From: an uncultured Gammaproteobacteria bacterium
GTDB taxonomy: Bacteria; Patescibacteriota; Patescibacteriia; UBA9934
Assembly (NCBI GenBank): GCA_964569575.1
Contig: CAZMTL010000003.1
Location: 7,197-71,196 of the forward strand
Direction: 5' to 3'
DNA: 64,000 nucleotides
The translations under genes and the position numbers were made by a program. Shown here in pieces: positions 12,407 to 56,970 of the stretch (its first letter is position 1; each line of letters begins with the position of its first letter). The notes under the pieces are model-generated. The model saw only the letters and a list, made by a program, of their open reading frames with translations, ran no database searches and was not told where the DNA came from.

Positions 12407-12796
12407 ATGAAAATTCTTGCCATCATCACAGCACTTGGCGTCACCGCCATCATCGCCTTCTTTGCACTCAACCAACACATTTACAATCAAAAGCAGCAGC
12501 CTAACATTGCAGAAGCTTACCAAGCAGAACTCTCTGGCACCTACGTTTGTCTTCCGCACAAATACACAGACGGCACGCAAACAGACGAATGTGCCGCAGG
12601 CATACAAACACAAAACGACGAATACTACGCCCTCGATCTCGCTCTGCTGTCGCAAGGCGCGCCCGAACTCTCGATCGGTGACAACATCTCAGCAAACGGA
12701 ACCATCACCCCCATCGAACTCCTCAGCACCAACCACTGGCAACAATACAACATAGAAGGAATTTTCTCCGTAACTGACTCCCTCCAAATAAACTAA
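12407..12796 (+). CDS. secreted hypothetical protein (signal peptide)
   Basis: The N-terminal signal is MKILAIITALGVTAIIAFFAL. It is coupled 3 nt after the ligase stop. Confidence 0.4.
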   Translation: MKILAIITALGVTAIIAFFALNQHIYNQKQQPNIAEAYQAELSGTYVCLPHKYTDGTQTDECAAGIQTQNDEYYALDLALLSQGAPELSIGDNISANGTITPIELLSTNHWQQYNIEGIFSVTDSLQIN

Positions 12797-12838: not shown

Positions 12839-13753
12839 CTACCCCCTACTCCCTCCCTCAAACGCCTCCTCCAACATGCCGACATCCAACTTCTTCATTT
12901 TCAACATCACTTCAGTCATACGATCCACCTGCTCCTGCGTCCCACGAATCATCATGTCGTTCATTGAACGTGGAACAATTTGCCACGAAACACCAAACTG
13001 ATCCTTCACCCACCCACACTGCTCCGCTTCGGGAACAGCCGAAAGTTTCTGCCAGTAATAATCAACCTCTGCCTGATCATCGCACATCACCATCAGCGAA
13101 ACCGCTTCGTTAAAAATAAACTTGTGATTCTGCGCGCTATCCATCGCCGCAAACCAGGTGTCATACAACGAAAAATCCGCAAACATCACCCCCTCTTCTT
13201 TTTCGGGTGGATGTTCAGCACCATAACGCGCAATCTGACCCTTCTTCGACTGCTTAAACACCGACGTATAAAAATCGACCGCCTCCTCGGCACGGCCATA
13301 CACATCACCCACAAACAACAGCGAAGGGATAATATTCGGCCTCTCTTCACCATCCGGATCAGTCAAAATCAATTGCCACGAAAACCCATATTTATCCTGA
13401 ATCCAACCGTAACGCTTGCTAAATGGATATGCATCAAGCGGCATCAATACCTTTGCGCCATCCGACAACTTCTCCCAAAGGGTATTCAAATGCTCTTCAG
13501 CCTTCTCGTCGCGCGAAGGATCAAAATTAACCATGAAGGAAATCGATGGATTTGGAACAAAATATGGACCAGCGCTAATCGCCATAAACGGCTGACCAGC
13601 AAGTTGAAACGAAAGAACATCGCAATCGCCCGAAGGAGTCTTGGTTAACAACGCACTTCCAAGAACTTTTGAATCCGGAAACGCCGACACATAAAAATCA
13701 ACCGCCTCTTTTGCCTGATGATCGAACCACAAATGAGGAACAATTTTATTCAT
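12839..13753 (-). CDS. VOC-superfamily protein with two tandem PhnB-like (3-demethylubiquinone-9 3-methyltransferase-like) domains
   Basis: HLWFDHQAKEAVDFY... and a second repeat LLFVGDVYGRAEEAVDFY.... The start was taken at the internal ATG (MNKIVPHLWFD). Confidence 0.55.
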   Translation of the reverse strand: MNKIVPHLWFDHQAKEAVDFYVSAFPDSKVLGSALLTKTPSGDCDVLSFQLAGQPFMAISAGPYFVPNPSISFMVNFDPSRDEKAEEHLNTLWEKLSDGAKVLMPLDAYPFSKRYGWIQDKYGFSWQLILTDPDGEERPNIIPSLLFVGDVYGRAEEAVDFYTSVFKQSKKGQIARYGAEHPPEKEEGVMFADFSLYDTWFAAMDSAQNHKFIFNEAVSLMVMCDDQAEVDYYWQKLSAVPEAEQCGWVKDQFGVSWQIVPRSMNDMMIRGTQEQVDRMTEVMLKMKKLDVGMLEEAFEGGSRG

Positions 13754-13804
13754 ACACGAAGAATTTAATATCAAACTCTTCCACTGTACCACATCCTCAT
13801 CGCG

Positions 13805-14635
13805 CTAAAACAACTTCGCAGCAGCAAGAAAGAAAAGAATCGCGCCAATAACAGTATTTACAAACGGAAACACACGGTACACGGCAAAAATTCCACCTGA
13901 ACCTTTTACAAACGAAGCAATCATCAATGCCACATAGACACCCGCAAACACCACAGCAAAAATCGGATGATGTAACGCAAACAATCCACCAGCCGCAACA
14001 TACAACAACCCGCACAGCACCAACGTACGCGTAAACCCAAGTGCCGTTGCAATCGTACGCAGCTTTACCGCACGATCAGCCTCAATATCAGGAACAGCCG
14101 AATACGCATGCATCGCCATCGCCCACAAACACGCCGCAAAAACCAATTCAAATGGCGGAGCGACTTCCGAAACAAGAAACCATCCCACAAGCGCAGGACA
14201 AATATACAAAATGTTATACGCTGAATCCAAAAACGGCCGAGCCTTTGCACGAATAGGCGTCGCCGAATAAAAATACCCAAAAAAGAAAAACGCCGTTAAT
14301 GCCGCGACCGCAGAAGTGGGCAACAGAAAAAATAACGGCACAAAAGGCAACACACTCCACGCAATCGCACGCTTCAACCGCACATGATCCGAACGATCCA
14401 CCCGCACTTCATATGTCTGCTTCTTCGCATTCACCGCATCCGTCTCATAATCAAACAAATCATTTACGCCGTAAATGAACAAATTTGCCGGAAACGTAAA
14501 AAAGAGCGCTGCATACAGCAACAACGGATCAAGCAACATCTGAGCCGACTCAACCGAAGCTATCACCCCAATCGCAAACGGACCAAGTAAATACACCCAA
14601 AACCGAGGGCGACTAATCAAAAGTAAGGATTTCAT
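13805..14635 (-). CDS. UbiA-family prenyltransferase (lycopene-elongase-like; CrtEb/LyeJ-type candidate)
   Basis: NDxxDxxxD motif (GVNDLFDYETDAVN), a second Asp-rich motif (VPDIEADRAV) and 8-9 TM helices. It sits in the carotenoid gene neighbourhood. Confidence 0.6.
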   Translation of the reverse strand: MKSLLLISRPRFWVYLLGPFAIGVIASVESAQMLLDPLLLYAALFFTFPANLFIYGVNDLFDYETDAVNAKKQTYEVRVDRSDHVRLKRAIAWSVLPFVPLFFLLPTSAVAALTAFFFFGYFYSATPIRAKARPFLDSAYNILYICPALVGWFLVSEVAPPFELVFAACLWAMAMHAYSAVPDIEADRAVKLRTIATALGFTRTLVLCGLLYVAAGGLFALHHPIFAVVFAGVYVALMIASFVKGSGGIFAVYRVFPFVNTVIGAILFFLAAAKLF

Positions 14636-14657
14636 ACATCGAGTATACTATACCCGT
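14636..14657. promoter_or_regulatory. 22-bp divergent spacer with overlapping palindromic -10 boxes (TATACT on both strands) 6 and 8 nt from the two ATGs
   Basis: The spacer is acatcgagTATACTATAcccgt, and no Shine-Dalgarno is present on either side. Leaderless initiation is inferred. Confidence 0.5.
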
Positions 14658-15383
14658 ATGAAACACCGCATAATCACCGCAACAATCATCCTCTCGGCCA
14701 TCAGCGCCTTTTTCACGTACAAATTCATTCAGGAATCACCCACATTTCTCACCCCAATCTTCATCGCCGCCATCGCCCTACCAACCATTATCGGCCTTTG
14801 GAAGTCCTTAAAATGGCGAGGACTAGCGCTCTTCCTCGCGCTCGGTGCATTCGCCTGCGCAATCGAAACCATCGGCATCATCACCGGATTCCCTTACGGA
14901 GAATTCACCTACTCAAACGCACTCGGCGCAAAATTATTTGGCACAACACCCTTCCCCGTCTTCTTCGCCTGGTCGCCTCTCGTATTCGGATCGCTCGCCC
15001 TCGCGCAAATCACAACCAAAAAAATCACCTCACAATTTCTTCTCGCCCTAGCACTCCTCATCACCACCGATCTCATCCTAGACCCCGGCAGCGTCGCCCT
15101 CGGTTTCTGGACATGGAAAAACCCAGGCGCGTACTATGGCGTTCCGCTCATCAACTACCTCGGATGGATCATCTCGGGATCGATCGGCATCGCGATCGCA
15201 CAAGCGATGCAAAAACATCATGAACACAAAAGAGCGTCAGCAAGCACATGGATTATTCTGCCGCTGCTGTTCAGCATCTATTTCTGGACCGCAATAAATA
15301 TTCTTGTCACAAACAGCATTCCAGCCATACTAGGCATCGTTTTCTCAGTAATCACGACCGTACTATTCTACAAAAAAATATGA
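14658..15383 (+). CDS. carotenoid biosynthesis membrane protein (Caroten_synth/DUF422, CruF-like candidate carotenoid 1,2-hydratase)
   Basis: About 7 TM helices and a GFPYGEFTY motif. The stop overlaps the photolyase start (ATGA). Confidence 0.45.
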   Translation: MKHRIITATIILSAISAFFTYKFIQESPTFLTPIFIAAIALPTIIGLWKSLKWRGLALFLALGAFACAIETIGIITGFPYGEFTYSNALGAKLFGTTPFPVFFAWSPLVFGSLALAQITTKKITSQFLLALALLITTDLILDPGSVALGFWTWKNPGAYYGVPLINYLGWIISGSIGIAIAQAMQKHHEHKRASASTWIILPLLFSIYFWTAINILVTNSIPAILGIVFSVITTVLFYKKI

Positions 15384-16732
15384 TCGACCCACGCCGAATC
15401 CGCTCGCACAACACACATGAATACAAAAATGGTCCAGTCATCTACTGGATGGACCGCGACATGCGCGCCTCGGACAACTGGGCGCTTCTTCACGCAGCCG
15501 AGCTCGCAAAAAAACACAACGCCCCTCTCGCCGTCGTCTACAATTTAGTCACGGATTTTTTAGGCGGCGGCGCAAGACAACTCGACTTCAAACTCCGCGC
15601 ACTCGAATTGCTGGAAGAAATGTTTCAAAAGAAACACATCTCGTTCACCGTTCTTGTAACAGACGATTCAACAAAAGACCTTCAGGATTTTTTCAAGAAA
15701 ACAAAAGCTGGCTGCATCGTAACAGACTTCTCTCCACTAAAAATCCAACGCAAATGGAAAGCTGAGCTCGCAAAAACGCTCACCGTTCCCTTCCGCGAAG
15801 TCGACACACACAACATCGTGCCTGCTTGGGAAGCATCGAACAAAAAAGAATTCGGAGCCTACACCATCCGACCAAAAATCCACCGCCAACTTAGCGATTT
15901 TCTTGTTGAATTTCCAAAACTCACAAAAACCGAATCGATTTCCCCGCCAACAAAAAACAATTGGACCGAATGGAAAAAATTAATTGGCACTCACCCAACG
16001 CCCCTCACCCTTCCCGCCGGCGAAACAGCCGCAAAAAAAGCGCTTCAGCACTTTTTCAAAAACCGCCTACGAGGCTACGCCGAAAAACGAAACGACCCAA
16101 CGCTCGACGGCCAATCAAACCTGTCACCCTATCTCCACTACGGCCACATCAGCACTCAACGCATCGCGCTCGAACTCAAAAAAGAACACTCGCCACTCGA
16201 AGACAAAGAAGCATTTTTCGAAGAACTTGTCGTCCGAAAAGAACTGGCCGATAATTTTTGCTACTACGAACCCAACTACGATTCCACAAAAGGATTCCCG
16301 ACCTGGGCAAAGCAAACCCTTCTCGACCACGCAAACGACGAACGCGCATTCCTCTACACCAAAAAAGAATTCGAACAGGCAAAAACACACGATCAGCTCT
16401 GGAATGCGGCTCAAATGGAAATGGTGCTAACCGGAAAAATGCACGGCTACATGCGCATGTACTGGGCAAAGAAAATTCTCGAATGGACAAAATCACCAGA
16501 CGAAGCGATGAAAATCGCCATCTACCTCAACGACACCTACGAACTAGACGGCCGCGATCCAAACGGGTACACCGGAATTTCGTGGTCCATCGGCGGCACC
16601 CACGACCGAGCCTGGGGCACCCGTCCAATCTTCGGCAAAATCCGCTACATGAACGACAAAGGCGCAAAGCGGAAATTTGATGTTGAAGCGTACGTAAATA
16701 AATGGATGGGAACGGGCGGATTAGGAATATAA
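15380..16732 (+). CDS. class II CPD (deoxyribodipyrimidine) photolyase
   Basis: The N terminus is GPVIYWMDRDMRASDNWAL. The C-terminal class II signature is WSIGGTHDRAWGTRPIFGKIRYMNDKGAKRKFDVEAYV. Confidence 0.8.
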   Translation: MIDPRRIRSHNTHEYKNGPVIYWMDRDMRASDNWALLHAAELAKKHNAPLAVVYNLVTDFLGGGARQLDFKLRALELLEEMFQKKHISFTVLVTDDSTKDLQDFFKKTKAGCIVTDFSPLKIQRKWKAELAKTLTVPFREVDTHNIVPAWEASNKKEFGAYTIRPKIHRQLSDFLVEFPKLTKTESISPPTKNNWTEWKKLIGTHPTPLTLPAGETAAKKALQHFFKNRLRGYAEKRNDPTLDGQSNLSPYLHYGHISTQRIALELKKEHSPLEDKEAFFEELVVRKELADNFCYYEPNYDSTKGFPTWAKQTLLDHANDERAFLYTKKEFEQAKTHDQLWNAAQMEMVLTGKMHGYMRMYWAKKILEWTKSPDEAMKIAIYLNDTYELDGRDPNGYTGISWSIGGTHDRAWGTRPIFGKIRYMNDKGAKRKFDVEAYVNKWMGTGGLGI

Positions 16733-16785
16733 ACACGAAACCTCCCTTCCGTCCTTCGCTAAAGCTTCAGAGGACCCCCCCGTAG

Positions 16786-16915
16786 CCTTGGCGAAGGTGG
16801 GTAGTCCTCATTGTGGATCTAAGAAGGAGGGGAAACGCGTTTTGATTTTCGCCGAAAGACCCCTCCTCACCTCCCCTTGGTAAGGGGAGGAAACGCTTCG
16901 AGCTCATGCTCTCCC
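16786..16915. repeat. GC-rich palindromic repeat element, copy A (core tgtggatctaagaaggaggggaaacgcgttttgattttcgccgaaag plus hairpin ctccccttggtaaggggag)
   Basis: Its reverse complement is about 85% identical to the element at 63880-63929. Confidence 0.6.
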
Positions 16916-17267
16916 CTACGAAGAGAGACGAAGTCGAACGCCAGCGGAGCTCAACAAGCTGTGACAAAGAAAACGTGTAACTAAATCACTGTAACAAAAT
17001 CAGCGAAGGTCGAGCATTTTTCTCGTGTCTGCGGAGAGGGCTTGACCCTCGGAGACAGACATTGCAAAGAAAAATGCGATCGGTCACTTTCCAAAATTTA
17101 AAAATAAATGTTCGTGCCGCCGAGCCAGGAAAGGCTCTTTCTTTTGCCTACTTCTCTTTGAGCCAGCAAAGAAAAGTAGGTCGGGGTTCGGGGGTGAAAC
17201 TCCCGATCGTTGTGACAAAGTCGAAGCGACGCAGTCGCCTCAGACTCGCGCGCGATCGATCAGCGCG

Positions 17268-17342
17268 TAACCACCCCTCACCCCTCCTTGCGGATCTGAG
17301 AAGAAAGGGAAGCGCGTTATGATTTTCGCTCGAAACAAAAAA
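17268..17342. repeat. GC-rich palindromic repeat element, copy B
   Basis: tgcggatctgagaagaaagggaagcgcgttatgattttcgctcgaaac is about 80% identical to copy A. Confidence 0.6.
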
Positions 17343-17486
17343 GCGATGGATCCCAGCCTGCCCGGCCTTTAGTGCCGGGGATCAGGTCCGGGATGACAAA
17401 TATTTAGAACAATCAAAAAAACGACGCACGCGCTCCCGAAAGAACACGGCGTCGTCAGAAACAGGATCCAAAAATCCACCCTCACC

Positions 17487-19001
17487 CTAAACCTCATTCA
17501 ACGGCCCCGCCGTCCCATCCCCCACCATCCTTTTATAAACCAACTCCGCACTAATCAAACACGTCGGCATCCCGATTCCCGGATTTGTACTGGCTCCCAC
17601 ATAGTACAAATTCGGAATTTTTTTACTCACCGTATCTGGTCGAAAAATAGCCGTCTGAAAAAACGTATGCGCTAACCCGAGAGCCGTCCCTTTAAACGAA
17701 TTGTATCGCTCTTCAAAATCCCGTCCCGAAAAAATCCGTTTATAACAAATCCGCTCCCGCAAATTTGCAATCCCCATATCGCGCTCCATTCCCTCCAACA
17801 CCTTTTCTGCATACGCTTCAAGCAACGCATCATCTTCTTCCATCCCCGGCGCAATCGGCACCAGCACAAATAAATTCTCCTTCCCTGCAGGCGCCACAGA
17901 ATCATCCGTTACACTTGGCGCGCACACGTAATACGAAGGATCATCCGGCCATGTTGGTTGATCAAAAATCTGACCAAAATTTTTCTTCCAATCTTTCGAA
18001 AACACTAAATTATGATGAACCACTTCGGGAATCTTCCCTTCTACTCCCAAGTACAAAATAAACGCTGAAGGCGAAAGCACACGCTTTTCCCAATACGCAT
18101 CCGTAAACGAACGATGCGACGCGTCGAGCAGCTTCGTTTCAGTAAAATGAATATCGGCATTCGACACAACTTCATCCGCAAAATGTTCTTCTCCATTTTC
18201 GAGTCGAACACCAACAGCCCGACCATCCTTCACCAAAATCGTCTCCACCGCCGCCGAAGTCCGAATCTGAACCCCATGCTTTTGCGCAATCTTCACAAGT
18301 GCCTCGATAATCGTATAAATCCCACCCATCGGGTAATACACACCCATATTGAAATCGATGTGACTCATAATGTTATACAAAGCCGGCGTGTTATAAGGCG
18401 AGCTTCCCAAAAACACGAGAGGGTACTGCACAATCTTCTGCACTTCGTCGGTTGAAAAAAACTTCGACACATACCGCTGCATACTAGAAAAAACCGACAA
18501 CTTCGGACCCTGTGTCATCACCTCCCAAGTAAGAAAATCAAAAATGTTGCGATAATTTTTATACATAAACCGCTGCGTCGCAATCGCATATTGCTTTTCG
18601 GCCCGCGCCAAATAATCACGCATGCGATCGGCACTTCCAGGCTCCAACTTCTCGAGCGTCGCTGCATCACGGCTCATGTCTGAAAAAATCTCTACCTCTT
18701 TGCCGGTATCTTTAAAAAAGATTTTATAAGAAGGCTCCAATCGATGCAGCTGCAAATGATCTTCCACGCGCTCACCCATCAACCGAAAAAACTGCTCAAA
18801 AATATCGGGCATCAAATACCACGAAGGTCCCATATCAAATCGAAATCCTTCCGCCTCAAACACACTTGCTCGACCGCCAGGCGCTTCGTTCTTCTCAAAC
18901 ATCTGGACTTTGGCTCCAGCTTTACCAAGCAAACAAGCAGCCCCTAGTCCACCAAACCCCGAACCAATTACGATTACGTTCTTTCCTTCAAGCTTTGCCA
19001 T
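17487..19001 (-). CDS. crtI: phytoene desaturase CrtI
   Basis: N-terminal FAD fold (KNVIVIGSGFGGLGAACLL) consistent with the CrtI family. The start at the internal ATG overlaps the crtB 3' end by 28 nt. Confidence 0.8.
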   Translation of the reverse strand: MAKLEGKNVIVIGSGFGGLGAACLLGKAGAKVQMFEKNEAPGGRASVFEAEGFRFDMGPSWYLMPDIFEQFFRLMGERVEDHLQLHRLEPSYKIFFKDTGKEVEIFSDMSRDAATLEKLEPGSADRMRDYLARAEKQYAIATQRFMYKNYRNIFDFLTWEVMTQGPKLSVFSSMQRYVSKFFSTDEVQKIVQYPLVFLGSSPYNTPALYNIMSHIDFNMGVYYPMGGIYTIIEALVKIAQKHGVQIRTSAAVETILVKDGRAVGVRLENGEEHFADEVVSNADIHFTETKLLDASHRSFTDAYWEKRVLSPSAFILYLGVEGKIPEVVHHNLVFSKDWKKNFGQIFDQPTWPDDPSYYVCAPSVTDDSVAPAGKENLFVLVPIAPGMEEDDALLEAYAEKVLEGMERDMGIANLRERICYKRIFSGRDFEERYNSFKGTALGLAHTFFQTAIFRPDTVSKKIPNLYYVGASTNPGIGMPTCLISAELVYKRMVGDGTAGPLNEV

Positions 19002-19843
19002 AAAAGCGGTGCAATAAATAAACATTTTTCAAAAAAACTAGTACGTGCGCGACCAAGAAACGGGTTACAATCCTGCGCCTCTAACTTCTCCAAAATCGCT
19101 TCGTACAACCTAGACGCCACGCGCACAGAAAACCGACCACCTCGATTGAGCATCGGAATCCCCAGGTCCGCCTCGCGATACAGTGCCCGAGCACGAGCGA
19201 TTTCAAACTGCATCAACTGCTTAAACGCGTCATCAAAACGTCGTTCAACAATCTGCTCACGCGTCACTCCGAAACGCTTCAAATCTTCTTCCGGCAAATA
19301 AACGCGCCCGCGTTCAATCATGTCCTCGTCCACATCTCGCAAAAAATTCGTCAGCTGCATCGCGTATCCAAGCGCTTCAGCATACCCAAGCGCACGCGCG
19401 TCCGAATACCCAATTACATACGTCATCATCAACCCAACAACAGCCGCGGAACCATACATATAGCCTTTCAAATCTTCGTACGTGGCATAAGAATCTACAA
19501 ACACATCCTGCTCCATTGCATCCAAAAATGCTTCGCTATATTCAAACGGAATTCCATATCGCGAAAACACCTCCGCCGTCGCGCGCAAAACAGGGTGATC
19601 ACTCTCGCCCGTCGCATATGCACTTCGCCACTTCTCTCGCCACGCACTCAACTCCGCTCGAACATCTTCCTGCGTACGTTCACCTGCAAAATCAACAACG
19701 TCGTCTGGCACCCGAAAAAACGCATATAACACAAACGTCGCCTCGCGCAATTCACGCGAAAAAAACTTCGTCGCAAAATAATAACTCTTCCCATGCTTAC
19801 GATGAATCGCCTCGCAATACGCCACGTCAGTCGCAAGCAACAT
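18974..19843 (-). CDS. crtB: phytoene synthase CrtB (squalene/phytoene synthase family)
   Basis: YCEAIHRKHGKSYYFATKFF...FFRVPDDVVD and a second Asp-rich motif. Confidence 0.8.
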   Translation of the reverse strand: MLLATDVAYCEAIHRKHGKSYYFATKFFSRELREATFVLYAFFRVPDDVVDFAGERTQEDVRAELSAWREKWRSAYATGESDHPVLRATAEVFSRYGIPFEYSEAFLDAMEQDVFVDSYATYEDLKGYMYGSAAVVGLMMTYVIGYSDARALGYAEALGYAMQLTNFLRDVDEDMIERGRVYLPEEDLKRFGVTREQIVERRFDDAFKQLMQFEIARARALYREADLGIPMLNRGGRFSVRVASRLYEAILEKLEAQDCNPFLGRARTSFFEKCLFIAPLLWQSLKERT

Positions 19844-19844
19844 A

Positions 19845-20888
19845 TTACGAAAGTCGTTTTACAATCTTGCCAAGCAAATCCGAAAACTGACCGCGCAACT
19901 CATCCTTCACAGCACCACTGTCCAAAACAGATTTCGCCGACTCGAAATGACCATCCATAATCTGCCGTACGTTCTGCACAACGTCATTCTTTTCAAAAAA
20001 ATCCCGTAACTGCCCTCGCTCTTCTTCCCGAAAATCTCGTCCAAAAAATCCTTCAAAAAACTCCTTATCTTCCACACTTCCTTCCGACCGAATCTTCATC
20101 GACAAATACGTATGCTGACCATCTCGCACATCCGAAAACAATCGCTTTCCGGTCTTTTCCTCGTCCCCAATCACATCAAGTAAATCATCCTGAATCTGAA
20201 ACCCAATCCCAAGCTCACGCCCGAACGCATCAGCAAAAGCAAAGTAATCACCATTCAGCCCCGCAAGCGCAAACCCAATCCGCAACGGTCGCACAAACGT
20301 ATAACTCGCCGTTTTAAAATACATCTTCGCTAAAATATCTGCTTGCTCGGCCTGCGCGCTAGTCATCAAATCAACATCCAACATCTGACCAACGACCACT
20401 TCATCCATCATCATCCGCACCTCACGCCAAGCAGCTGCATTCGCACCAATCGAAGAATACAACGCATCCAAGGCCCATCCGAACACTAAATCACCTACTA
20501 ACACGGCCTGACTATTAGAAAGATGTCCCACGTCACCTCGCGCCTCGCGCGCAAGCATCGTCCGCAAAAAATACGCATGCACTGTCTCCTCCCCACGCCG
20601 CAACGCCGCACGATCAATCACGTCGTCATGAATCAAGCAAAACGCATGAAACAATTCAATCCCAACCAACGCCGAAACAATCTCTTCCCGCGACTTCCCG
20701 CCCGCCGTATACGCAAGTGCAATAATATAAGGACGAATCCGCTTCCCCGTCGCACTAATCCGCTGCACCCGCCTTAAAGCATCGAGCAATTCTTGATTGT
20801 CGGTCATTCCCGCCACCTCCAAAATTCGATCCGAAATCACCTCCGAAAACCGTGGATCAAACCACTCCCGAAATTCCTGTAGAGACAT
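19845..20888 (-). CDS. crtE: polyprenyl synthetase (GGPP synthase, CrtE/IdsA-like)
   Basis: FARM motif LIHDDVID and SARM motif GFQIQDDLLD. The start was taken at the internal ATG. Confidence 0.75.
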   Translation of the reverse strand: MSLQEFREWFDPRFSEVISDRILEVAGMTDNQELLDALRRVQRISATGKRIRPYIIALAYTAGGKSREEIVSALVGIELFHAFCLIHDDVIDRAALRRGEETVHAYFLRTMLAREARGDVGHLSNSQAVLVGDLVFGWALDALYSSIGANAAAWREVRMMMDEVVVGQMLDVDLMTSAQAEQADILAKMYFKTASYTFVRPLRIGFALAGLNGDYFAFADAFGRELGIGFQIQDDLLDVIGDEEKTGKRLFSDVRDGQHTYLSMKIRSEGSVEDKEFFEGFFGRDFREEERGQLRDFFEKNDVVQNVRQIMDGHFESAKSVLDSGAVKDELRGQFSDLLGKIVKRLS

Positions 20889-20988
20889 AGTGCACCAAAT
20901 ATAACAAAAAGAGGCAGATTTGGGAAAATGAAACAAATAAAAAACACCCCTTACTGCTCCTAATATTCAAACCAGAAACAAAAAGGGG

Positions 20989-21078
20989 TGGCGGAGAGAG
21001 AGGGATTCGAACCCTCGATACCCGTAAAGGCATACACGATTTCGAGTCGTGCGCTTTCGACCACTCAGCCATCTCTCC
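20989..21078 (-). tRNA. tRNA-Ser (anticodon CGA), long variable arm, CCA encoded
   Basis: The reverse complement gives GGAGAGATGGCTGAGTGGTCGAAAGCGCACGACTCGAAATCGTG...GGTTCGAATCCCTCTCTCTCCGCCA. Confidence 0.85.
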
Positions 21079-26665: not shown

Positions 26666-26777
26666 ATTCCCGCCAAAAAACAAGAGGGGCCCCGAGCAGA
26701 ACACGCAGTCGCGCATTCAACTCAGAGCCCCGAAGCCCCGATCCCCACCACACGTAAGCGGTGAGGATATCAGACTT

Positions 26778-28835
26778 CTACTTCACCACGTCACAGGCGC
26801 AGCGTCCGACCTTCTTCAAGGCATGGACACAGAGCCGATCGTAATCCGCCTGCGTGATCACGCAAGCGGAAGCCGTGGCAGTTGGTACTGCTACGACCAC
26901 CATCTGACGCGTTTGCCACACCGCCAGAATGCCGGTTGTGGCTACGGTGCCGAGGATGACCAGGGTCATCGTACGGCTGACAGCACGGCTGGCCGCGTAA
27001 GCCATGGTTCCGTAGACGTCCTTGTCGTTGACCTTCGGTCCGAGCATCGTCAGGAGCTCGGCACAGAGACCAAGAACAACGCCCGAAGTGGTGTAGAGCC
27101 ACCCCGCGAACCGAACGACCGAGCTGAAGCCGTGCATGGCCGGAAAGCCCGCCAGGTTGATCAGCAGGATCACCAACGACACGACGTTCGCGCGAACCGC
27201 GATACCGACAAGTCGAGGATGAGGAGGCTTGGCATGCGGGTTGCGCTCACGCTCCTTCTCGAGAAGCGAGAACACCCGACGCCGATCCTCTGCGCTCTGC
27301 TGAGCCCACCGTTGCAAGGGCTCGAGGTCAGAGACGCCCACCTTGACGAGGAGGTCCTTCATTGCGGTTGCGGGGAACGTGAGCCAGTTGGGGTTCGGGA
27401 TGAACCCTCCCAGCATGCTGATGACGTCGTCCTGCAGTCGAGCGATCAGCCGACCAAGGAAGACGAGTACGGCGCCCGAAGCCGAAACGGTCAACAGGAG
27501 CGCGTGCAGCCACGCGGGTCCCGAAAAACCGATGATGGCCGGAACCGCCATGGTGCCGACGAAGGTAAACGCGTGCAGGAAGTACCCGCCCACGATCGCC
27601 AACCACGGCACCACCATGAACACCAGGAAGGTGCCCAAGGCCAGCACGGATCCGCCACCCATCATCACCGCCAGGACTCGAATGAGCCAGGGCAGGTCAC
27701 GGAAGCGGCCTTCACGCAGGTTGGTGAACTGCCGCACGAACCAGGCCCGGATCAGCGGAACCGGCACGAACCGATCGATCTGGTCCATGCCCCAGGCATA
27801 CCAGCTCGGCGTATGCATCGTGGAGATGTCCACGACGAACTTGCCAAGCGCGGCATGGATCTGCGCAGGAGTCGACGCGTCGTTGAGCTCCGGCAGAATG
27901 CTGATGAGCGCCTGCGGATTGTTCCTCGCAAGCGTGATCAGCCCCTCGAAAGCGCTGTAGGCAAAGCCGTCGTAGGACGGCGGCAGCTGCCCCAGAATCC
28001 ACCCCTCACGTCCGGGGGTGAAGTTCGCAATACGACCACCAGGCATGACCTGATTCAGTCGTTCCTGCGCCTGGTCGGTGTCGCGGTACATGTACCACAC
28101 CAAGTTCCAGTACAGGATGTAGAACCCTGGCAAGAGGTGTTCCGGACACTGCTGCAGGAAGGTCTTGGCGACCCCTGCGTCGGTCGGCGGCTCGCCTTCC
28201 GGCTCCTCGTCCGGACTCACCGTCTCGACGACGATCGTAACCACATCGTTAGGGAAGCAGTCACGACAGAAGGCCTTGTGGAGATTCTCGAGAACCTCGA
28301 GACCACTCAGCTCAATCGAACGGTGATCGCCGGAAACCCCACACAGCACGCCCTTTCGATGAATGTTGTGCTGCCGATGTGGCCCGGTCTGGAACTTCTT
28401 CTCTTCCAGATCGCGCTTTTCGCTCGAGTTGTTCCACGAGTCCATAATGCGCGCCTTCAGGTCATCCTCACTCAAATCGCCATTCGAAAGGATGTTCTTT
28501 GCCATGGAGGCAAAGTTACCAATGAACATGCCGATCGGGTATCGAATAACCAGCGGAACACCCTTCATGCTCTTCACGGTCTCGCCCATCAACTGACCCA
28601 GGAAGATTCGTACGGGCACAGGAATGGCCACGAAGGCGCGGTAGACAAACTCCCAGAAGGGAGCCTTACCGAGCGCCTCCTTCAGGCTATCGCGATGCTC
28701 ATGGAAGAACTTCCCCATGAACTTACGCAGAAGCTCTTGAGTGCCTTGATCGATGGTCTCACCGACCACCGACTCCAGCCCGGGCACGGCGTCGATTCCC
28801 TTCTTGAATTCACGCACCAGCAGGTCGATATTCAT
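26778..28835 (-). CDS. uncharacterised 685-aa polytopic membrane protein (about 390-aa N-terminal soluble domain plus 6 or more TM helices) in the high-GC island
   Basis: The minus-strand ORF has clear TM helices. A GGAG Shine-Dalgarno sits 6 nt upstream of the internal ATG (MNIDLL), and GC is about 62%. Confidence 0.5.
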   Translation of the reverse strand: MNIDLLVREFKKGIDAVPGLESVVGETIDQGTQELLRKFMGKFFHEHRDSLKEALGKAPFWEFVYRAFVAIPVPVRIFLGQLMGETVKSMKGVPLVIRYPIGMFIGNFASMAKNILSNGDLSEDDLKARIMDSWNNSSEKRDLEEKKFQTGPHRQHNIHRKGVLCGVSGDHRSIELSGLEVLENLHKAFCRDCFPNDVVTIVVETVSPDEEPEGEPPTDAGVAKTFLQQCPEHLLPGFYILYWNLVWYMYRDTDQAQERLNQVMPGGRIANFTPGREGWILGQLPPSYDGFAYSAFEGLITLARNNPQALISILPELNDASTPAQIHAALGKFVVDISTMHTPSWYAWGMDQIDRFVPVPLIRAWFVRQFTNLREGRFRDLPWLIRVLAVMMGGGSVLALGTFLVFMVVPWLAIVGGYFLHAFTFVGTMAVPAIIGFSGPAWLHALLLTVSASGAVLVFLGRLIARLQDDVISMLGGFIPNPNWLTFPATAMKDLLVKVGVSDLEPLQRWAQQSAEDRRRVFSLLEKERERNPHAKPPHPRLVGIAVRANVVSLVILLINLAGFPAMHGFSSVVRFAGWLYTTSGVVLGLCAELLTMLGPKVNDKDVYGTMAYAASRAVSRTMTLVILGTVATTGILAVWQTRQMVVVAVPTATASACVITQADYDRLCVHALKKVGRCACDVVK

Positions 28836-28940
28836 GTTGCACTCCACGCAGCTTAGCTGCATTTATGTTTCGGGATATTGAAGTAGAATGTGAAAGAATA
28901 TCCGCAATGCGGAACGCTAAAAAATAACAGATTTTAAGGC

Positions 28941-29011
28941 TTTTGTCAATGTTAAGTCATCAAAACAAACAAAGACTAATGAATGAAATACACGTGCCAA
29001 CATTGACAAAA
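28941..29011. promoter_or_regulatory. 13-bp inverted repeat TTTTGTCAATGTT ... AACATTGACAAAA in the AT-rich divergent promoter region of the island
   Basis: The two perfect arms are 45 bp apart. This is a candidate operator. Confidence 0.4.
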
Positions 29012-29077
29012 AGCATTTTTTCTGATAAATAAAGAGGTTCCGTAATTCACGGAAGCAAAACCACCAAGGAGTACATC

Positions 29078-29365
29078 ATGTTCCTGCTATTCCTCGGCAT
29101 CACCAGCGCAAACCCGCCCTCGCCCTTCGCGAAGGCGGAGGAGAACCTGGTGCTCACCGAAGCACAACGCAGCGAGATGGTATCGCTGCGTAGTCAGCGA
29201 GACGAGCTGGCAGACGAGCTGCTGAAGGCCCTGAAGGAAGTCGACCGGCTGAAGAGCCTGGTACAGACCACCGAAGCGGAGCGCGACAAGTTCAAAGGCA
29301 CGGCGAGCAAGTACGAGCAGTGCCAAGCGGCGCTGACCGACCTGCTCGAGGAGTGTGCCCAGTGA
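29078..29365 (+). CDS. small coiled-coil protein with hydrophobic N terminus (95 aa), island
   Basis: An AAGGAG Shine-Dalgarno sits 7 nt upstream. The sequence is heptad-like (LADELLKALKEVDRLKSLV). Confidence 0.4.
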   Translation: MFLLFLGITSANPPSPFAKAEENLVLTEAQRSEMVSLRSQRDELADELLKALKEVDRLKSLVQTTEAERDKFKGTASKYEQCQAALTDLLEECAQ

Positions 29366-29883
29366 ACGTCCTGTTCCTGCTGCTCGCGAACGCGTCGGCA
29401 AGCGACACGATCGACGAGCTGTGCAACAAGCATCCGGGTCTGCAGACCTGCGCAGCACGCGCAACTGCAGAGCACCCGTACTACATCTGCAAGGTGGGTC
29501 TTTCGCTGGAAGCGTTGAATTGGTCCGACGCCATCAGCGTCACCAACAACCCAAACGGCGAAATTGCGCTCGCCGTTGACGGAAACGAAGTGAAAATCGT
29601 AGACGTCAACAACAGGGCGCAGCTGGCCCAGACCGTCGACGGAACCTGGGTCTACATGCTGAAGCCCAGGCAGTCCTGCACCATGATGGTGCCCGCCCAG
29701 GACCAGTGGCAGGTCACCGCAACGAAGGTGGGCAGCAACAACAACGGCGGCACCATCGAAACGGAAGTGGTGGCCTGGCGCAGCGGTCGAGTACAGCTGT
29801 ACGCGACCTACACACAACCTCTCGGCGGCAGGGGCTACGGAAAGCACTGGGTGCTGACCCCAAGCCTGTTCAAGAAACCGTGA
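29362..29883 (+). CDS. secreted beta-rich hypothetical protein (signal peptide), island
   Basis: A GTG start overlaps the upstream stop (GTGA). The signal peptide is LFLLLANASA. Confidence 0.4.
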   Translation: MNVLFLLLANASASDTIDELCNKHPGLQTCAARATAEHPYYICKVGLSLEALNWSDAISVTNNPNGEIALAVDGNEVKIVDVNNRAQLAQTVDGTWVYMLKPRQSCTMMVPAQDQWQVTATKVGSNNNGGTIETEVVAWRSGRVQLYATYTQPLGGRGYGKHWVLTPSLFKKP

Positions 29884-29899
29884 ACGGCTCGCCGAAATC

Positions 29900-29947
29900 A
29901 AAAGCCCCCGACCACACGCTGTGCGGTCGGGGGCAATCTGTTTTTAT
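29900..29947. terminator. strong GC-rich terminator GCCCCCGACC-loop-GGTCGGGGGC + TTTTT
   Basis: The 10-bp GC stem sits at the island's right border and downstream of a pilin-like gene. Confidence 0.7.
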
Positions 29948-29950
29948 TAA

Positions 29951-30340
29951 CTAAGTAGTGGTAGCGTTTCCTAATTCGGTAATCACGAATTCCGAAATCG
30001 CATAAGCACTCAAGATGATCACTAAACCAATTACAGCTTGTACCAACAATTTCTTTGCTTTTTCAACGTTATCAGTATTACCAGCCGCCGTCATCCAAAG
30101 TCCACCAGCGTAAAGCACGAGAACTAAAAAGACGATTCCTAAAAAGCCCAAAACTGCCTGAATCAAACTTCCCAAAGTCTCCTCTAACGTTCTTCCACCA
30201 GAACCAAACGCCTCATCTCCGACATCGCTAAGTCCAGTTGTTAAATCAATCTGCGCTTGCGCAGGAGTACTAGCGAACAAACCTGCCAACAAAACAAATC
30301 CCACCGTCGGAACCGCTAAAAACTTTAATGCCAAATTCAT
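29951..30340 (-). CDS. VirB2/TrbC-topology pilin-like protein (T4SS pilin-like), paralog 1
   Basis: A signal peptide ending AQA is followed by a variable region. The C-terminal conserved two-helix module is LGFLGIVFLVLVLYAGGLWMTAAGNTDNVEKAKKLLVQAVIGLVIILSAYAI. Confidence 0.55.
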   Translation of the reverse strand: MNLALKFLAVPTVGFVLLAGLFASTPAQAQIDLTTGLSDVGDEAFGSGGRTLEETLGSLIQAVLGFLGIVFLVLVLYAGGLWMTAAGNTDNVEKAKKLLVQAVIGLVIILSAYAISEFVITELGNATTT

Positions 30341-30444
30341 AAATAAATTAAGTAATTACTCAATTAGTACTTCTAGTATAGCACGTTCAGCAACAACCTA
30401 AAGGATATCTGGGGATAGTCTTGAAACCGCGATCAAAACAGAGA

Positions 30445-30858
30445 CTATTCCACAGCAGGAATACCCTGCGTACCTTCTTGAACGCTATCCGTGGTAATGC
30501 CGGAAAGCTCATTCATTACCGTAGTCGTAATGACGTATGCTGAAATAATAAGCACTAAGCCTATCACAGCCTGAACAATTAAACGCTTTGCCTTCGCAAC
30601 CAATTCTACATTTCCTCCAGCTGTCATCCACAAAAAACCTGCGTACAGCATCAGTACAAGAAAGAGAATACCCACGAATCCAAGAGCAGGTGCAATAATG
30701 CGCTCCCCTAAAAAGTCAGGCAAACTCGTTTCTGCGTCAGCTCCATACACAGCAGTGCCCGTAGCTGTTAATCCACTATTTTCAGGATCAAACTGCGCAA
30801 ATGCAAAAATTGGCATCAACAGCAAAGAAATGGCGAGGAGGGATAGCAGTTTTCGCAT
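30445..30858 (-). CDS. VirB2/TrbC-topology pilin-like protein, paralog 2
   Basis: The module is LGFVGILFLVLMLYAGFLWMTAGGNVELVAKAKRLIVQAVIGLVLIISAYVI. Confidence 0.55.
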   Translation of the reverse strand: MRKLLSLLAISLLLMPIFAFAQFDPENSGLTATGTAVYGADAETSLPDFLGERIIAPALGFVGILFLVLMLYAGFLWMTAGGNVELVAKAKRLIVQAVIGLVLIISAYVITTTVMNELSGITTDSVQEGTQGIPAVE

Positions 30859-30902
30859 AACGGAACGTTCGAAGAAAGTTCGAACGAACCGTCATGTGAC
30901 AA

Positions 30903-31316
30903 CTAGTTAGTTGCTCCAATGATGGCTCCAACCACGAATTGCGCGATTGCCCATGCAGAGAAAATGATGGCAAGACCGATCACTCCAGAAATAAGGAGTT
31001 TCTTGGCTTCCTGCACCTTTTCGTCGTTTCCTCCCGCGGTCATCCATTTGAATCCCGCGAAAAGCACGATGATCACCGCAATGATTCCGAGGAATCCAAG
31101 CACAGCATTGATCAACCCACCAATCGTTTCCTGAAGATCAGTGTCTCCAAGACCCGTGTTGGCACGGAAGTCGTCGTCCAAGATTGTACTTGGATCATTT
31201 GCATCAAACTGAGCGTGCGCGATTTGAGTCATTCCAAGGAATGAAAGCGCGAGCGCTAGTCCGACACCAATGCTTGCTACATAGCGTAGAAGTGTGTGCG
31301 TCATAAAATATGACAT
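30903..31316 (-). CDS. VirB2/TrbC-topology pilin-like protein, paralog 3
   Basis: The module is LGFLGIIAVIIVLFAGFKWMTAGGNDEKVQEAKKLLISGVIGLAIIFSAWAI. Confidence 0.55.
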   Translation of the reverse strand: MSYFMTHTLLRYVASIGVGLALALSFLGMTQIAHAQFDANDPSTILDDDFRANTGLGDTDLQETIGGLINAVLGFLGIIAVIIVLFAGFKWMTAGGNDEKVQEAKKLLISGVIGLAIIFSAWAIAQFVVGAIIGATN

Positions 31317-31340
31317 TGTTAAGGTTTATTAGACATGTTA

Positions 31341-31691
31341 TTAGCCCGTAACACTACCGGTCGCAAGACCTTGGAAGATAGCCGTTACAAGCACATAAGA
31401 AGAAGCGATGAGTACCAGGCCCATAACGGCCCAAAGTAACACATTCTTCCCCTTTTCCACCGCCGTGGCGTTCCCGGCTGAAGTCAGCCACAGAAACCCA
31501 CCATACACAAACATCAGCAACGCTACCGAACCTACAATCGAAAGGGCAGCCTGAATCACTCGCGCAATAATCAAGCGAGGATCAGTCACACCATCTCCAA
31601 GCGGATTCACAAGCGTCACGACGTCCTGAGCATGCACAACGATTGGAAGAAAAAGCAGACTTATGAAAATAAGATAAGGAAGCTTTTTCAT
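31341..31691 (-). CDS. VirB2/TrbC-topology pilin-like protein, paralog 4
   Basis: The module is LSIVGSVALLMFVYGGFLWLTSAGNATAVEKGKNVLLWAVMGLVLIASSYVL. Confidence 0.5.
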   Translation of the reverse strand: MKKLPYLIFISLLFLPIVVHAQDVVTLVNPLGDGVTDPRLIIARVIQAALSIVGSVALLMFVYGGFLWLTSAGNATAVEKGKNVLLWAVMGLVLIASSYVLVTAIFQGLATGSVTG

Positions 31692-31743
31692 ACAAGTATT
31701 ATAACATTAATACAAACACTCATGAACACGATTGTGTATATGT

Positions 31744-32232
31744 TTACTGCGTGTCGATAACATTCGTCGCGCCACTTACATCTTCAACCGTCTGTCCGTC
31801 GCTTGGGAGCTGCCCCGTACGAATCAAACTGATCACAATCGTAATCAACGAATACGACGTAAAAATAATCACAAGCCCAATCAACGCTCCAACTAAAATC
31901 TGCTTCCCTTGCTCAACACGTGCCGCATTCCCACCAGAAATCAACCAAAGAAATCCGCCATACACAAACATCAACAAAGCAAGCGAACCCGAAATACTCA
32001 AAATCAACGTAATAATATTCACCATCACCTGCAAAATATCTGAAATTTCGCAGTCGCCACTATCACGACAAGGACATTCCGCGGCACTCGAAGTACAGAT
32101 GCCGGCAAAAATAACTCCCTGCTGACGAATCTGTTCGTATGTTACCGGGCCACCTTGAGCAAACGCAGCCGTTGGAACAAAAAAAGAAACAAAGAGTGCA
32201 AACGACAAAACAAGTTTCGAAAACATATACAA
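31744..32232 (-). CDS. VirB2/TrbC-topology pilin-like protein, paralog 5 (Cys-rich variable region)
   Basis: The module is LSISGSLALLMFVYGGFLWLISGGNAARVEQGKQILVGALIGLVIIFTSYSL. It has 6 Cys in the exposed region. Confidence 0.5.
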   Translation of the reverse strand: MYMFSKLVLSFALFVSFFVPTAAFAQGGPVTYEQIRQQGVIFAGICTSSAAECPCRDSGDCEISDILQVMVNIITLILSISGSLALLMFVYGGFLWLISGGNAARVEQGKQILVGALIGLVIIFTSYSLITIVISLIRTGQLPSDGQTVEDVSGATNVIDTQ

Positions 32233-43649: not shown

Positions 43650-44792
43650 TTACTGACGAATAGGCATTACAATGTGACGATATCGTTCGTCGGCCGACTC
43701 GAATGCGGTAATTGTTAACGGTGAATTCTTCTCGATCCAAGAACAAAGCACCTTCTCGGCCCCAATCGCATTTACCGCGTCCATCAAATACCGAAAATTC
43801 ACCAAAATCGAATTCTCCTCCCCAGTAATCATCGCTTCAACTTCAACCTGGTTTTCCCCACGCTGACTATCGGTCGCATACAGCGTCAATTTCTGCTCAG
43901 CAACATTAGTTTTCATTTCCACGTCAAACAATCCATTCTTCGAAAACAAACTCACCGCCTTCACCGCCTTCAAAAACGACTGCTTGTCCGCCGCAACCGT
44001 TGTCTTCGCCTCTGTCGGAATAATGCGCTGGTACTCCGGATACGGTCCGTCGATAGTTCGCGAAGTAATCTCCACGCCCGCATAACGAAAGGCTGCCTGA
44101 TTTTCGAGTAACTCCACTTCAACCGCATCTCCCGCATCCACATCATCTTTAAAAACACCAAACACACGATTCAATTCAAGTAATGTGCGCTGAGGAATAA
44201 TCACCTGACGCATTTCATCACTTCCACCCGAAACACCAATAATCGCTTCTCCTAATCGATAACTATCCGTCGCGGCTAACACCAAGGTTCCTGCCCCTGC
44301 TGATTCGCCATGGAAGGACAGCAGTACCCCCGCCAACTCGGGACGTGACTCATTTGTCGCGGCAGCAAACAAAACCTGCGACAGCGCCCGCGAGAGGGCT
44401 TTAGAGGGCAGTGAATACTTCACGCCCCCCTCCACTGGAGGGATTGGAGGAAATTCCGATGTATCAATTCCTTTAATCTTCGTCTTCGCCTTCCCGCAAG
44501 CAACCGAAAGCGCATCATCGAGTAAATCGATTTGCACATTCTCATTTGGAAGCAAGTTCACGTAGTCAAAAAACAATTTTCCCGGAACAGTATATTCCCC
44601 TTGCTGCTCAACACGTCCCCGGACATGACAAGTAATAGCAATCTCTAGATTTGTCGAAATCAATTTCAATCCCCCAGAATCTGCTTTCAAATAAACATTA
44701 CTCAATATAGGCAAATGAACATTCTTTGTTCCAATATGACTTGTAATAGCAAGTCCTTGGTGCAAGTTTTCTTTGGTACAGGTAAGTTTCAC
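43650..44792 (-). CDS. dnaN: DNA polymerase III beta sliding clamp DnaN
   Basis: Three-domain beta clamp (MKLTCTKENLHQGL...). It lies immediately downstream of dnaA. Confidence 0.9.
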   Translation of the reverse strand: MKLTCTKENLHQGLAITSHIGTKNVHLPILSNVYLKADSGGLKLISTNLEIAITCHVRGRVEQQGEYTVPGKLFFDYVNLLPNENVQIDLLDDALSVACGKAKTKIKGIDTSEFPPIPPVEGGVKYSLPSKALSRALSQVLFAAATNESRPELAGVLLSFHGESAGAGTLVLAATDSYRLGEAIIGVSGGSDEMRQVIIPQRTLLELNRVFGVFKDDVDAGDAVEVELLENQAAFRYAGVEITSRTIDGPYPEYQRIIPTEAKTTVAADKQSFLKAVKAVSLFSKNGLFDVEMKTNVAEQKLTLYATDSQRGENQVEVEAMITGEENSILVNFRYLMDAVNAIGAEKVLCSWIEKNSPLTITAFESADERYRHIVMPIRQ

Positions 44793-45026
44793 AAGTTCAG
44801 TGTTATTAATAAATTAAGTACTAAATAGATACAGTAGTAATAGTAAGGGGTGTGTACAGCTCGGATAAGTCGATTTTTTGGCGAATGTAGGGCTCAATTT
44901 TTTCCACATTCTGTGCATGGACCAGGGTATGAACTGGTGGATGAAAGGTGGACAACTTTTGAAGCTCGGAAGCAAGGAGAAGTTGACCACAGGGTTTTCA
45001 ACATATTCGAGCGACTTATCGACAAG
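44793..45026. promoter_or_regulatory. dnaA-dnaN intergenic region: AT-rich tract plus degenerate DnaA boxes (oriC half, candidate)
   Basis: AT-rich 44797-44847, and box-like ggtggacaa / ttgaccaca. Confidence 0.4.
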
Positions 45027-46454: not shown

Positions 46455-46519
46455 AAATGGCGTCTCTTTTCTCGAAAAAATTGAGAGAAGAGCGCGACGA
46501 CGTGAGTATTTTATACCAG

Positions 46520-46606
46520 ATATCCACAGGGGTACAAGGGGCGACCCTGAGTGTAACCTGAGGATGAAGTGTGGATAAGATGTGAATTATGCACAGGTTA
46601 TCCAAA
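46520..46606. promoter_or_regulatory. DnaA boxes upstream of dnaA (aTATCCACA 46520-28, TGTGGATAA 46570-78, TTATCCAaA 46598-06)
   Basis: One perfect and two one-mismatch 9-mers lie between dnaA and rpmH. Confidence 0.6.
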
Positions 46607-46726
46607 TTCTTGACAAAAAGGGGGTCGAATGATATCTTTTCGTCACTTGTTGAGTTGCTGACAAAGGCAGGTAAGCCTTTCACAACAACAGCGTTTTGTG
46701 TAAACAGAGCGTGAAATAAGCCCATT

Positions 46727-46879: not shown

Positions 46880-46919
46880 ACAAACGAGCCCTAGTGGCTC
46901 ATTTGTTTTTGTATAATAA

Positions 46920-47267: not shown

Positions 47268-47273
47268 TTAGGT

Positions 47274-47540: not shown

Positions 47541-47544
47541 AACA

Positions 47545-56968: not shown

Positions 56969-56970
56969 GA

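Follow-up and report, generated by a model that had tools for sequence, protein, structure and literature searches.

The 64,000-nt stretch of contig CAZMTL010000003.1 analysed here (hereafter the window) carries a carotenoid gene cluster that adjoins a photolyase gene. The six genes reported for this locus in an earlier note, made from the letters of the sequence, were all found at their coordinates, both in the list of open reading frames (ORFs) and by direct reading, and the five for carotenoid biosynthesis lie inside 7 kb. A lyeJ-like gene for a UbiA-family prenyltransferase of 276 aa (13805..14635, minus strand; PF01040, NF009516) and cruF, encoding 241 aa (14658..15383, plus strand; PF04240, TIGR03460), are divergently oriented, and direct reading places a spacer of 22 bp (14636..14657) between their start codons. 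On the plus strand cruF is followed by the gene for a class II cyclobutane pyrimidine dimer (CPD) photolyase of 450 aa (15380..16732; TIGR00591, match to structure 2XRY). Beyond a non-coding gap of 754 bp (16733..17486), which holds two direct repeat copies, the minus-strand genes converge on the photolyase: crtI, predicted to be of the CrtID type (17487..19001, 504 aa from the ATG at 19001; NF058655), at a distance of 2.9 kb from lyeJ; crtB, for a putative phytoene synthase of 289 aa (18974..19843; PF00494 and position beside crtI); and a crtE-like gene for a short-chain trans-prenyl diphosphate synthase (19845..20888; PF00348, DDVID and DDLLD motifs).

The crtI ORF is open to 19025 and the crtE ORF to 20936. 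The ATG at 19001 (MAKLEG...) is the likely true start of crtI, because the resulting 28-nt overlap with crtB then equals that seen in a relative, L002; for crtE the likely start is the ATG at 20888. The earlier note had described the three crt genes as tightly packed and overlapping. The tight packing and the crtI/crtB overlap hold, but crtE and crtB abut across a single nucleotide and do not overlap. Its account of the other strand was accurate: a UbiA protein with an NDxxDxxxD motif is divergently paired with a CruF-like protein, and the photolyase start at 15380 falls within an ATGA of which the TGA is the cruF stop, a 4-nt overlap read directly from the sequence. Statements below that other genes are absent hold within the 64-kb window.

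In Pfam the UbiA-family protein matched PF01040 at 75.6 bits. Both Asp-rich motifs are present, NDxxDxxxD at N58-D59..D62...D66 and DxxxD at D183..D187, and N58, D59, D62, D66, D183 and D187 are invariant in 28 homologues. The protein scored 259.3 bits on NF009516 (PRK12875), above the curated cut-off of 205. This model is named merely 'prenyltransferase', and its meaning was gauged with haloarchaeal LyeJ orthologues from canonical crtI-lyeJ-cruF clusters, which tblastn of plasmids revealed in Halocatena and Halarchaeum. The Halocatena orthologue scored 426 bits on the same model, and the window protein is 39% identical to the LyeJ of each genus. The CrtEb-type model NF009608 gave 123 bits for the window protein and 469 bits for an Arthrobacter enzyme, taken for comparison from a crtE-crtB-crtI-elongase cluster on a plasmid. 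Since NF009516 was passed and NF009608 gave only 123 bits, we assign the window enzyme to the LyeJ type and not to the CrtEb type. It is predicted to be a lycopene C5-elongase/1,2-hydratase, and the linkage of lyeJ to cruF and a CrtD/CrtI-type desaturase is kept in ~70 related loci.

We considered whether this UbiA protein might instead be a quinone, haem O or lipid prenyltransferase, in which case the locus would make lycopene-type C40 carotenoids only. Pipelines of the Joint Genome Institute (JGI) do call many relatives '4-hydroxybenzoate polyprenyltransferase'. However, no quinone, haem or chlorophyll prenyltransferase model in NCBIfam scored above 43 bits, a value reached by the best non-carotenoid model, ChlG, against 259 on the LyeJ-type model; the gene nearly always stands beside crtI and cruF; and in a bootstrapped neighbour-joining tree a carotenoid-linked group made up of haloarchaeal LyeJ, Arthrobacter CrtEb and the prenyltransferases of the bacterial module was split, with 100% bootstrap, from the outgroup of haloarchaeal paralogues outside carotenoid clusters. 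A quinone or haem identity is thereby effectively refuted and we give it next to no weight, and the LyeJ-like character suggested earlier for the gene agrees with the profile result.

The 241-aa protein matched PF04240 (Caroten_synth), the family foreseen for it, with 162.3 bits over profile positions 9-208 of 209. It passed TIGR03460 (bisanhydrobacterioruberin hydratase CruF) with 168 bits against a cut-off of 154.7, while the C40 gamma-carotene model NF045693 gave 77.5 bits against a cut-off of 400. Its identity to Halarchaeum CruF is 34%. We predict that it is a hydratase of C5 side chains, of the bisanhydrobacterioruberin hydratase type.

The products of crtI, crtB and crtE were recognised in Pfam as Amino_oxidase, SQS_PSY and polyprenyl_synt, respectively. 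CrtI, which is 47% identical to the CrtI of the Halarchaeum cluster, scored 654.3 bits on NF058655 (bifunctional phytoene desaturase/3,4-desaturase; cut-off 640). On this model a homologue from L089 also passed (663 bits), that of L002 narrowly failed (629 bits) and Arthrobacter CrtI failed (453 bits). The window enzyme is thus predicted to act as both phytoene desaturase and carotenoid 3,4-desaturase (CrtID type), and the cluster desaturase of Haloarcula japonica has been shown to have both CrtI and CrtD activity (PMC11946383). No second CrtI-family gene was found in the window, related clusters likewise hold a single one, and no cyclase domain was detected in window ORFs of 150 aa or more. 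The absence of CrtY and CrtD noted earlier therefore stands as far as genes are concerned, but it does not leave a CrtD gap, because a CrtI that passes the CrtID model would make a separate crtD unneeded. As the LyeJ-type, bacterioruberin-type CruF and CrtID models were all passed, the proposed bacterioruberin gene set was upheld; both checks suggested for it in the earlier note gave positive results, and neither of the refuting outcomes named there was seen. CrtB matched PF00494 with 258 bits and CrtE matched PF00348 with 160 bits. The CrtE translation contains DDVID and DDLLD motifs, and placement of crtE upstream of crtB is kept in Patescibacteria relatives. From this context, and from a Phe at position -5 before DDVID, which by chain-length rules we take as a sign of geranylgeranyl diphosphate (GGPP), the CrtE product is inferred to be GGPP.

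The photolyase scored 577 bits on TIGR00591 (class II; cut-off 550). It matched class II structures with E=1e-149 (Methanosarcina mazei 2XRY) and E=6e-127 (3UMV) and class I structures at only about 1e-8 (1OWL, E=8e-8), in line with its first annotation as class II. Equivalents of M. mazei W360, W381, W388, N403 and W421 are present in the window enzyme and are kept in at least 119 of 120 photolyase relatives; they comprise the electron-transfer tryptophans, the asparagine facing N5 of flavin adenine dinucleotide (FAD) and the lesion-pocket tryptophan. Since the class II chain residues, the asparagine and the pocket tryptophan are all conserved, the photolyase looks functional. An Arg at the M. 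mazei W305 position was considered as a possible defect and rejected, since Arg occupies this position in 120 of 120 relatives and is the norm of the subgroup.

The photolyases most similar to this one (60-61% identity) are encoded on contigs L088, L089 and L090. These are syntenic with the window: the locus is bordered on one side by RuvB (71% identical between the window and these relatives), bPH, SpoIID, polysaccharide synthase and Wzy_C, and on the other by NTP-transferase and SBP. Their carotenoid genes are arranged crtE-crtB-crtI-> <-lyeJ phr2->, so that the photolyase gene (phr2) is the divergent partner of lyeJ. The lyeJ/phr2 spacer is 32 bp in L088 (3392-5610) and in L089 (7126-9344). 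In the window cruF is situated between lyeJ and the photolyase gene, and the whole lyeJ-cruF-phr2 block is inverted by comparison. The simplest history would start from an ancestral phr2<-cruF<- ->lyeJ order, with cruF then lost in the relatives and the block inverted in the window.

In our view the locus probably serves photoprotection and belongs to the chromosome of an Uhrbacteria-related Patescibacterium, combining a full bacterioruberin-type route to a red acyclic C50 carotenoid with a class II CPD photolyase. CrtE would make GGPP, two molecules of which CrtB would join to form phytoene, and the single CrtI-family enzyme would convert phytoene to lycopene. The LyeJ-like enzyme would add a C5 unit derived from dimethylallyl diphosphate (DMAPP) at each lycopene end, with 1,2-hydration, alternating with steps in which the same CrtI-type enzyme, in the CrtD role, would put in the 3,4 double bonds; CruF would finally hydrate the side chains formed by these C5 units, and bacterioruberin would result. 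Since the 4-nt overlap makes it almost certain that cruF and the photolyase are made from one mRNA, completion of the pigment and light-dependent repair of ultraviolet (UV) dimers would be expressed together, possibly under control by light. What the sequences themselves show is the gene content, the family membership at curated cut-offs, the synteny and the host; enzyme activities, end product, co-transcription and any response to light are predicted from these.

A number of observations weigh against this reading. On the pathway side, the window CruF falls below the haloarchaeal equivalog NF041333 (142.3 bits against a cut-off of 300), on which Halocatena CruF scored 356 bits, and this model appears to be specific to Halobacteria. 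CrtI clears its cut-off by just 14 bits. Neither CrtB nor CrtE reached any NCBIfam equivalog cut-off, and the top NCBIfam match in the CrtB region was HpnD, under its threshold; the CrtB assignment accordingly rests on its domain and on its conserved place beside crtI. The route further presumes a supply of isopentenyl diphosphate (IPP) and DMAPP. Our literature search on bacterioruberin in Acidobacteriota, Abditibacteriota or Armatimonadota gave nothing relevant, nor did it yield a pigment identity for any non-actinobacterial member of the bacterial clade, so that for the C50 chemistry one has to extrapolate from proteins that are 34-47% identical. The NF041333 score of CruF and the empty pigment search would fit a different product, such as a hydroxylated acyclic C40 carotenoid, a C45 or partly processed C50 compound, or an undescribed prenylated carotenoid. 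CruF homologues of Deinococcus and cyanobacteria hydrate C40 substrates, and the separate NCBIfam model for these still gives 77 bits here; moreover cruF is missing next to lyeJ in L088, L089 and several other Patescibacteria, which implies that the end product differs within the group. Against a different product, the UbiA enzyme passes the LyeJ-type model and its gene is linked to crtI almost without exception, CruF scores twice as high on the bacterioruberin-type as on the C40-type model, and the one desaturase is of the kind needed for a bacterioruberin route, namely CrtID. We therefore consider a product other than bacterioruberin unlikely.

On the side of the photolyase, the syntenic relatives L088, L089 and L090 have no cruF at the locus. 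Among 80 other species genomes the linkage was seen in one, loosely (L079), and none of 80 photolyase-centred metagenome loci (52-56% identity) had carotenoid genes near the related photolyase, so the linkage is confined to a narrow lineage and a general photolyase-carotenoid gene linkage was rejected. A promoter scan of the cluster returned 8 sites with 7.1 expected, no excess over shuffled sequence, and a terminator scan likewise gave no excess. As the lyeJ/cruF spacer is only 22 bp, any promoters there must overlap coding sequence. No light-sensing regulator, including those of the LitR/CarH, LdrP and CrtR type, was found near the cluster among the domain matches. The adjacency could be a product of descent and local rearrangement, a chance neighbourhood without meaningful co-regulation. 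Beyond the window it was seen in just three contigs, L088, L089 and L090, and in looser form in L079; the photolyase of the syntenic relatives is divergent from ubiA and forms no operon with cruF; and a close relative of the photolyase, L091 (60% identity), lies in an unrelated gene context. Yet the linkage has outlasted divergence to ~60-70% protein identity as well as inversion of the block, the 4-nt overlap leaves no space for an intergenic terminator or promoter, and there are precedents in which carotenoid genes and photolyases are co-regulated or adjacent, as in the LdrP regulon of Thermus, in crt clusters of actinobacteria (PMC5401885) and in heliorhodopsin neighbourhoods (PMC8612252). 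Chance neighbourhood is thus a possibility that we take seriously but doubt, and a functional photoprotection locus remains our preferred reading.

The bacterioruberin pathway and its crtD-lyeJ-cruF cluster have been described in haloarchaea (PMC8305020), examples being Haloarcula japonica c0507-c0506-c0505, Halobacterium salinarum lye and Haloferax volcanii HVO_2528-2527-2526 (PMC8305020, PMC11946383). The window resembles these clusters in having the same three enzyme families, with LyeJ, CruF and CrtI each passing an NCBIfam model also matched by its haloarchaeal counterpart, in having crtB clustered alongside, as in Halarchaeum and Halocatena, and in having one CrtI-type enzyme predicted for both desaturations. 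It differs in that protein identity is merely 34-47% and CruF fails the haloarchaea-specific equivalog; the haloarchaeal genes are co-directional, whereas the window has a divergent lyeJ/cruF pair, with crtI-crtB-crtE on the strand opposite cruF; and the host is a reduced-genome bacterium, with a photolyase joined to the cruF transcription unit. Actinobacterial clusters for C50 carotenoids include crtE-crtB-crtI-crtYe/Yf-crtEb of Corynebacterium glutamicum, for decaprenoxanthin, and the bacterioruberin genes of Arthrobacter (PMC5401885, PMC9122864). These also place a UbiA-family lycopene elongase beside crtE, crtB and crtI, and some actinobacterial crt clusters have adjoining photolyase genes (PMC5401885), but the window has no C50 cyclase genes and its elongase is of the LyeJ rather than the CrtEb type. 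In Thermus thermophilus LitR/LdrP activates the crt operon and phrB (PMC5401885), so that light brings on carotenoid synthesis and photoreactivation jointly. There the coupling is by way of regulators, whereas in the window it would be by an operon of overlapping genes and the photolyase is of class II.

The distribution of the module was examined by alignment of the prenyltransferase against one genome per species; the genome of the window was not among these representatives, and searches for exact copies of its proteins yielded only short Logan contigs of SRR15237806. A relative was encoded by 374 species genomes, and the best 80 of the 374 belonged to Acidobacteriota (Pyrinomonadaceae, Blastocatellia), Abditibacteriota, Armatimonadota and, in 22 cases, Patescibacteria, labelled Uhr-, Parcu-, Pacei- and Saccharibacteria and Peribacteria. 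We mapped the six window proteins on the loci of these best 80 and counted those with enough flank. The recurrent layout was cruF<- ->lyeJ <-crtI <-crtB, with crtE present in some loci. Beside the prenyltransferase, the 40 non-Patescibacteria loci had cruF in all 40, crtI in 38, crtB in 37 and a photolyase in none, and the 18 Patescibacteria loci had cruF in 12, crtI in all 18, crtB in 6 and a photolyase in 1. The gene set is thus a common bacterial module of which Patescibacteria are regular carriers. The bacterial module shares with the window its genes, the divergent lyeJ/cruF pair and the overlapping crtB/crtI, as found in metagenome-assembled genomes (MAGs) of Acidobacteriota, Abditibacteriota, Armatimonadota and Patescibacteria. 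It differs in that the lyeJ-cruF block of the window has the opposite orientation with respect to crtI-crtB-crtE, which makes cruF, not lyeJ, converge on crtI, and in that the window has a photolyase after cruF and a repeat-bearing 754-bp spacer at the junction. We noted that cruF does not stand beside lyeJ in further Patescibacteria (L011, L029, L054, L079, L080 and L084); if there is no cruF elsewhere in the genome, such lineages would end at an anhydro-bacterioruberin-type product. It was also observed that L007, L052, L057, L067 and L076 have the module with crtE-crtB-crtI as in Patescibacteria versions and fall with Uhrbacteria-/Patescibacteria-type sequences in the neighbour-joining tree; their taxonomic labels may be wrong.

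With the haloarchaeal paralogues as outgroup, haloarchaeal LyeJ was sister to the bacterial clade (87% bootstrap). A nested position of haloarchaeal LyeJ within bacteria, obtained with an Arthrobacter-rooted neighbour-joining tree, was rejected in favour of this sister position. The window sequence was placed among the bacteria with 16% bootstrap, at which no claim on the direction of transfer is justified.

The presence of lyeJ, crtD and cruF in Patescibacteria of Lake Baikal was reported in 2023, and a membrane or photoprotective role was proposed for these carotenoid genes (Haro-Moreno et al. 2023, PMC9948471). The host phylum group and the inferred pathway are alike. The Lake Baikal genes were described as scattered, either over separate reads or with a long distance between cruF and lyeJ/crtD (PMC9948471), whereas those of the window lie together and its cluster includes crtE, crtB and an attached photolyase. 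The best named matches of the window polynucleotide phosphorylase (PNPase) are to Candidatus Uhrbacteria (71% identity) and its other named matches are all Patescibacteria, and on these PNPase matches rests our identification of the host as a Patescibacterium related to Uhrbacteria. The array of T4SS-pilin genes in the window, described below, also speaks for such a host. A Patescibacteria-like host had been suspected in the earlier note and is borne out, but the expectation that the pathway would be unusual there is not, given the Lake Baikal report and the 22 Patescibacteria among the best 80. In GC content the cluster genes match the flanking RuvB, SpoIID and Wzy genes, and both sets have a GC skew of unusual strength, which argues against a chimeric assembly. 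We did weigh whether the cluster is foreign to a Patescibacteria genome, either as a chimera or through recent acquisition from one of the phyla in which the module is most frequent, Acidobacteriota or Abditibacteriota. The window prenyltransferase is 44-51% identical to the Acidobacteriota, Abditibacteriota and Patescibacteria versions alike, and this equal distance, like the low bootstrap of its tree position, would allow such an origin. Besides the matching composition of the flanks, however, three independent assemblies (L088, L089 and L090) hold the cluster in the same housekeeping slot and the module occurs in 22 Patescibacteria species genomes, and we consider a foreign origin very improbable.

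The 754-bp gap between the photolyase and crtI contains copies of a repeat at 16806-16852 and 17283-17329 (plus strand), in direct orientation, 85% identical and ~47 nt long. A third copy (63881-63918, minus strand) lies just after a gene for an XerC/D-type tyrosine recombinase (62897-63814). The repeat unit is about 47-70 nt, and its core, CCCCTCCTTGTGGATCTGAGAAGGAGGGGAAACGCGTTTTGATTTTCGC, holds a 9-bp inverted repeat. The repeat was absent from 91 other loci in which it was sought and is lineage-specific. GC skew in the gap is -0.04, compared with about -0.3 in the flanking genes. The repeat-bearing gap borders, on one side, the block whose orientation is reversed in comparison with the syntenic relatives. 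A site-specific invertible element, which would need inverted copies flanking the lyeJ-cruF-phr2 block, was considered and rejected, since the two local repeat copies have the same orientation and are found on a single side of this block. An Rfam search of the gap gave a sub-threshold chance match only, and folding of the three repeat copies revealed no common structure.

Downstream of lyeJ, 12 bp away on the same strand, is a gene for a two-domain VOC/PhnB-like protein of 317 aa (12839..13792, minus strand; PF06983 twice, 230 bits) that is possibly co-transcribed with lyeJ. No homologue of it was found beside the cluster in 80+ related loci, and it is outside the conserved module. An ORF of 129 aa without a family match (12407-12796, plus strand) fills, together with the VOC gene, the space from Wzy_C to the cluster. 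Both are absent in the syntenic relatives and so mark the other edge of the rearranged block. Directly upstream of crtE, on the same strand, ARAGORN and Rfam identified a tRNA-Ser(CGA) (20989..21078, minus strand).

Several further features of the window were noted. Five small paralogous genes are arrayed at 29951-32232 (minus strand), and T4SS_pilin (PF18895) was matched by the two members scanned. It is to this family that the earlier note's remark on pilins refers, and the family also flanks the cluster in L089 and L090. From 26700 to 29900 the GC content is 0.56-0.58, compared with ~0.46, with little skew, and this stretch may be acquired DNA; it includes a gene for a predicted membrane protein of 694 aa without a Pfam match (26778-28862, minus strand), opposite which a 783-aa ORF is probably spurious. 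GC skew is extremely strong, about -0.3, over the first 42 kb regardless of gene strand and falls to ~0 past dnaA (44000-64000) rather than reversing sign. The dnaN and dnaA genes lie at 43650-44792 and 45027-46454, both on the minus strand, and DnaA-box clusters were found upstream of dnaA (46520-46606) and at 57941-58011, the latter with four perfect TTATCCACA boxes in 70 bp. With two DnaA-box clusters and no reversal of skew, the position of the origin is ambiguous. A membrane-bound H+-translocating pyrophosphatase (51390-53495, minus strand; PF03030, 871 bits) is also encoded in this reduced genome.

The locus adds a well-ordered example of a carotenoid module that has been reported in Patescibacteria before and is widespread in bacteria, and the photolyase operon is a lineage-specific variation on it. 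Haloarchaea are the best-known carriers of the lyeJ-cruF-crtI(D) set, which many bacteria of soil and freshwater also have. The photolyase coupling would be a modest but clean case of carotenoid synthesis and photoreactivation in one operon, not by way of a regulator. More speculatively, the Uhrbacteria-related lineage could be keeping a 'sunscreen plus repair' island by vertical descent, with cruF gained, lost or rearranged, and the bacterial module, with its 374 species genomes in at least four phyla, may yield an undescribed carotenoid; we hold this only tentatively. If it is true, ultra-small bacteria that are supposed to depend on hosts would produce a membrane pigment themselves and would be exposed to light where they live. 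Patescibacteria are usually pictured as incapable of making their own lipids. A carotenoid pathway encoded at one locus between housekeeping genes adds to the hints that some of them may have a membrane pigment of their own (PMC9948471), which would bear on the life of Patescibacteria in the light and on the degree of their host dependence.

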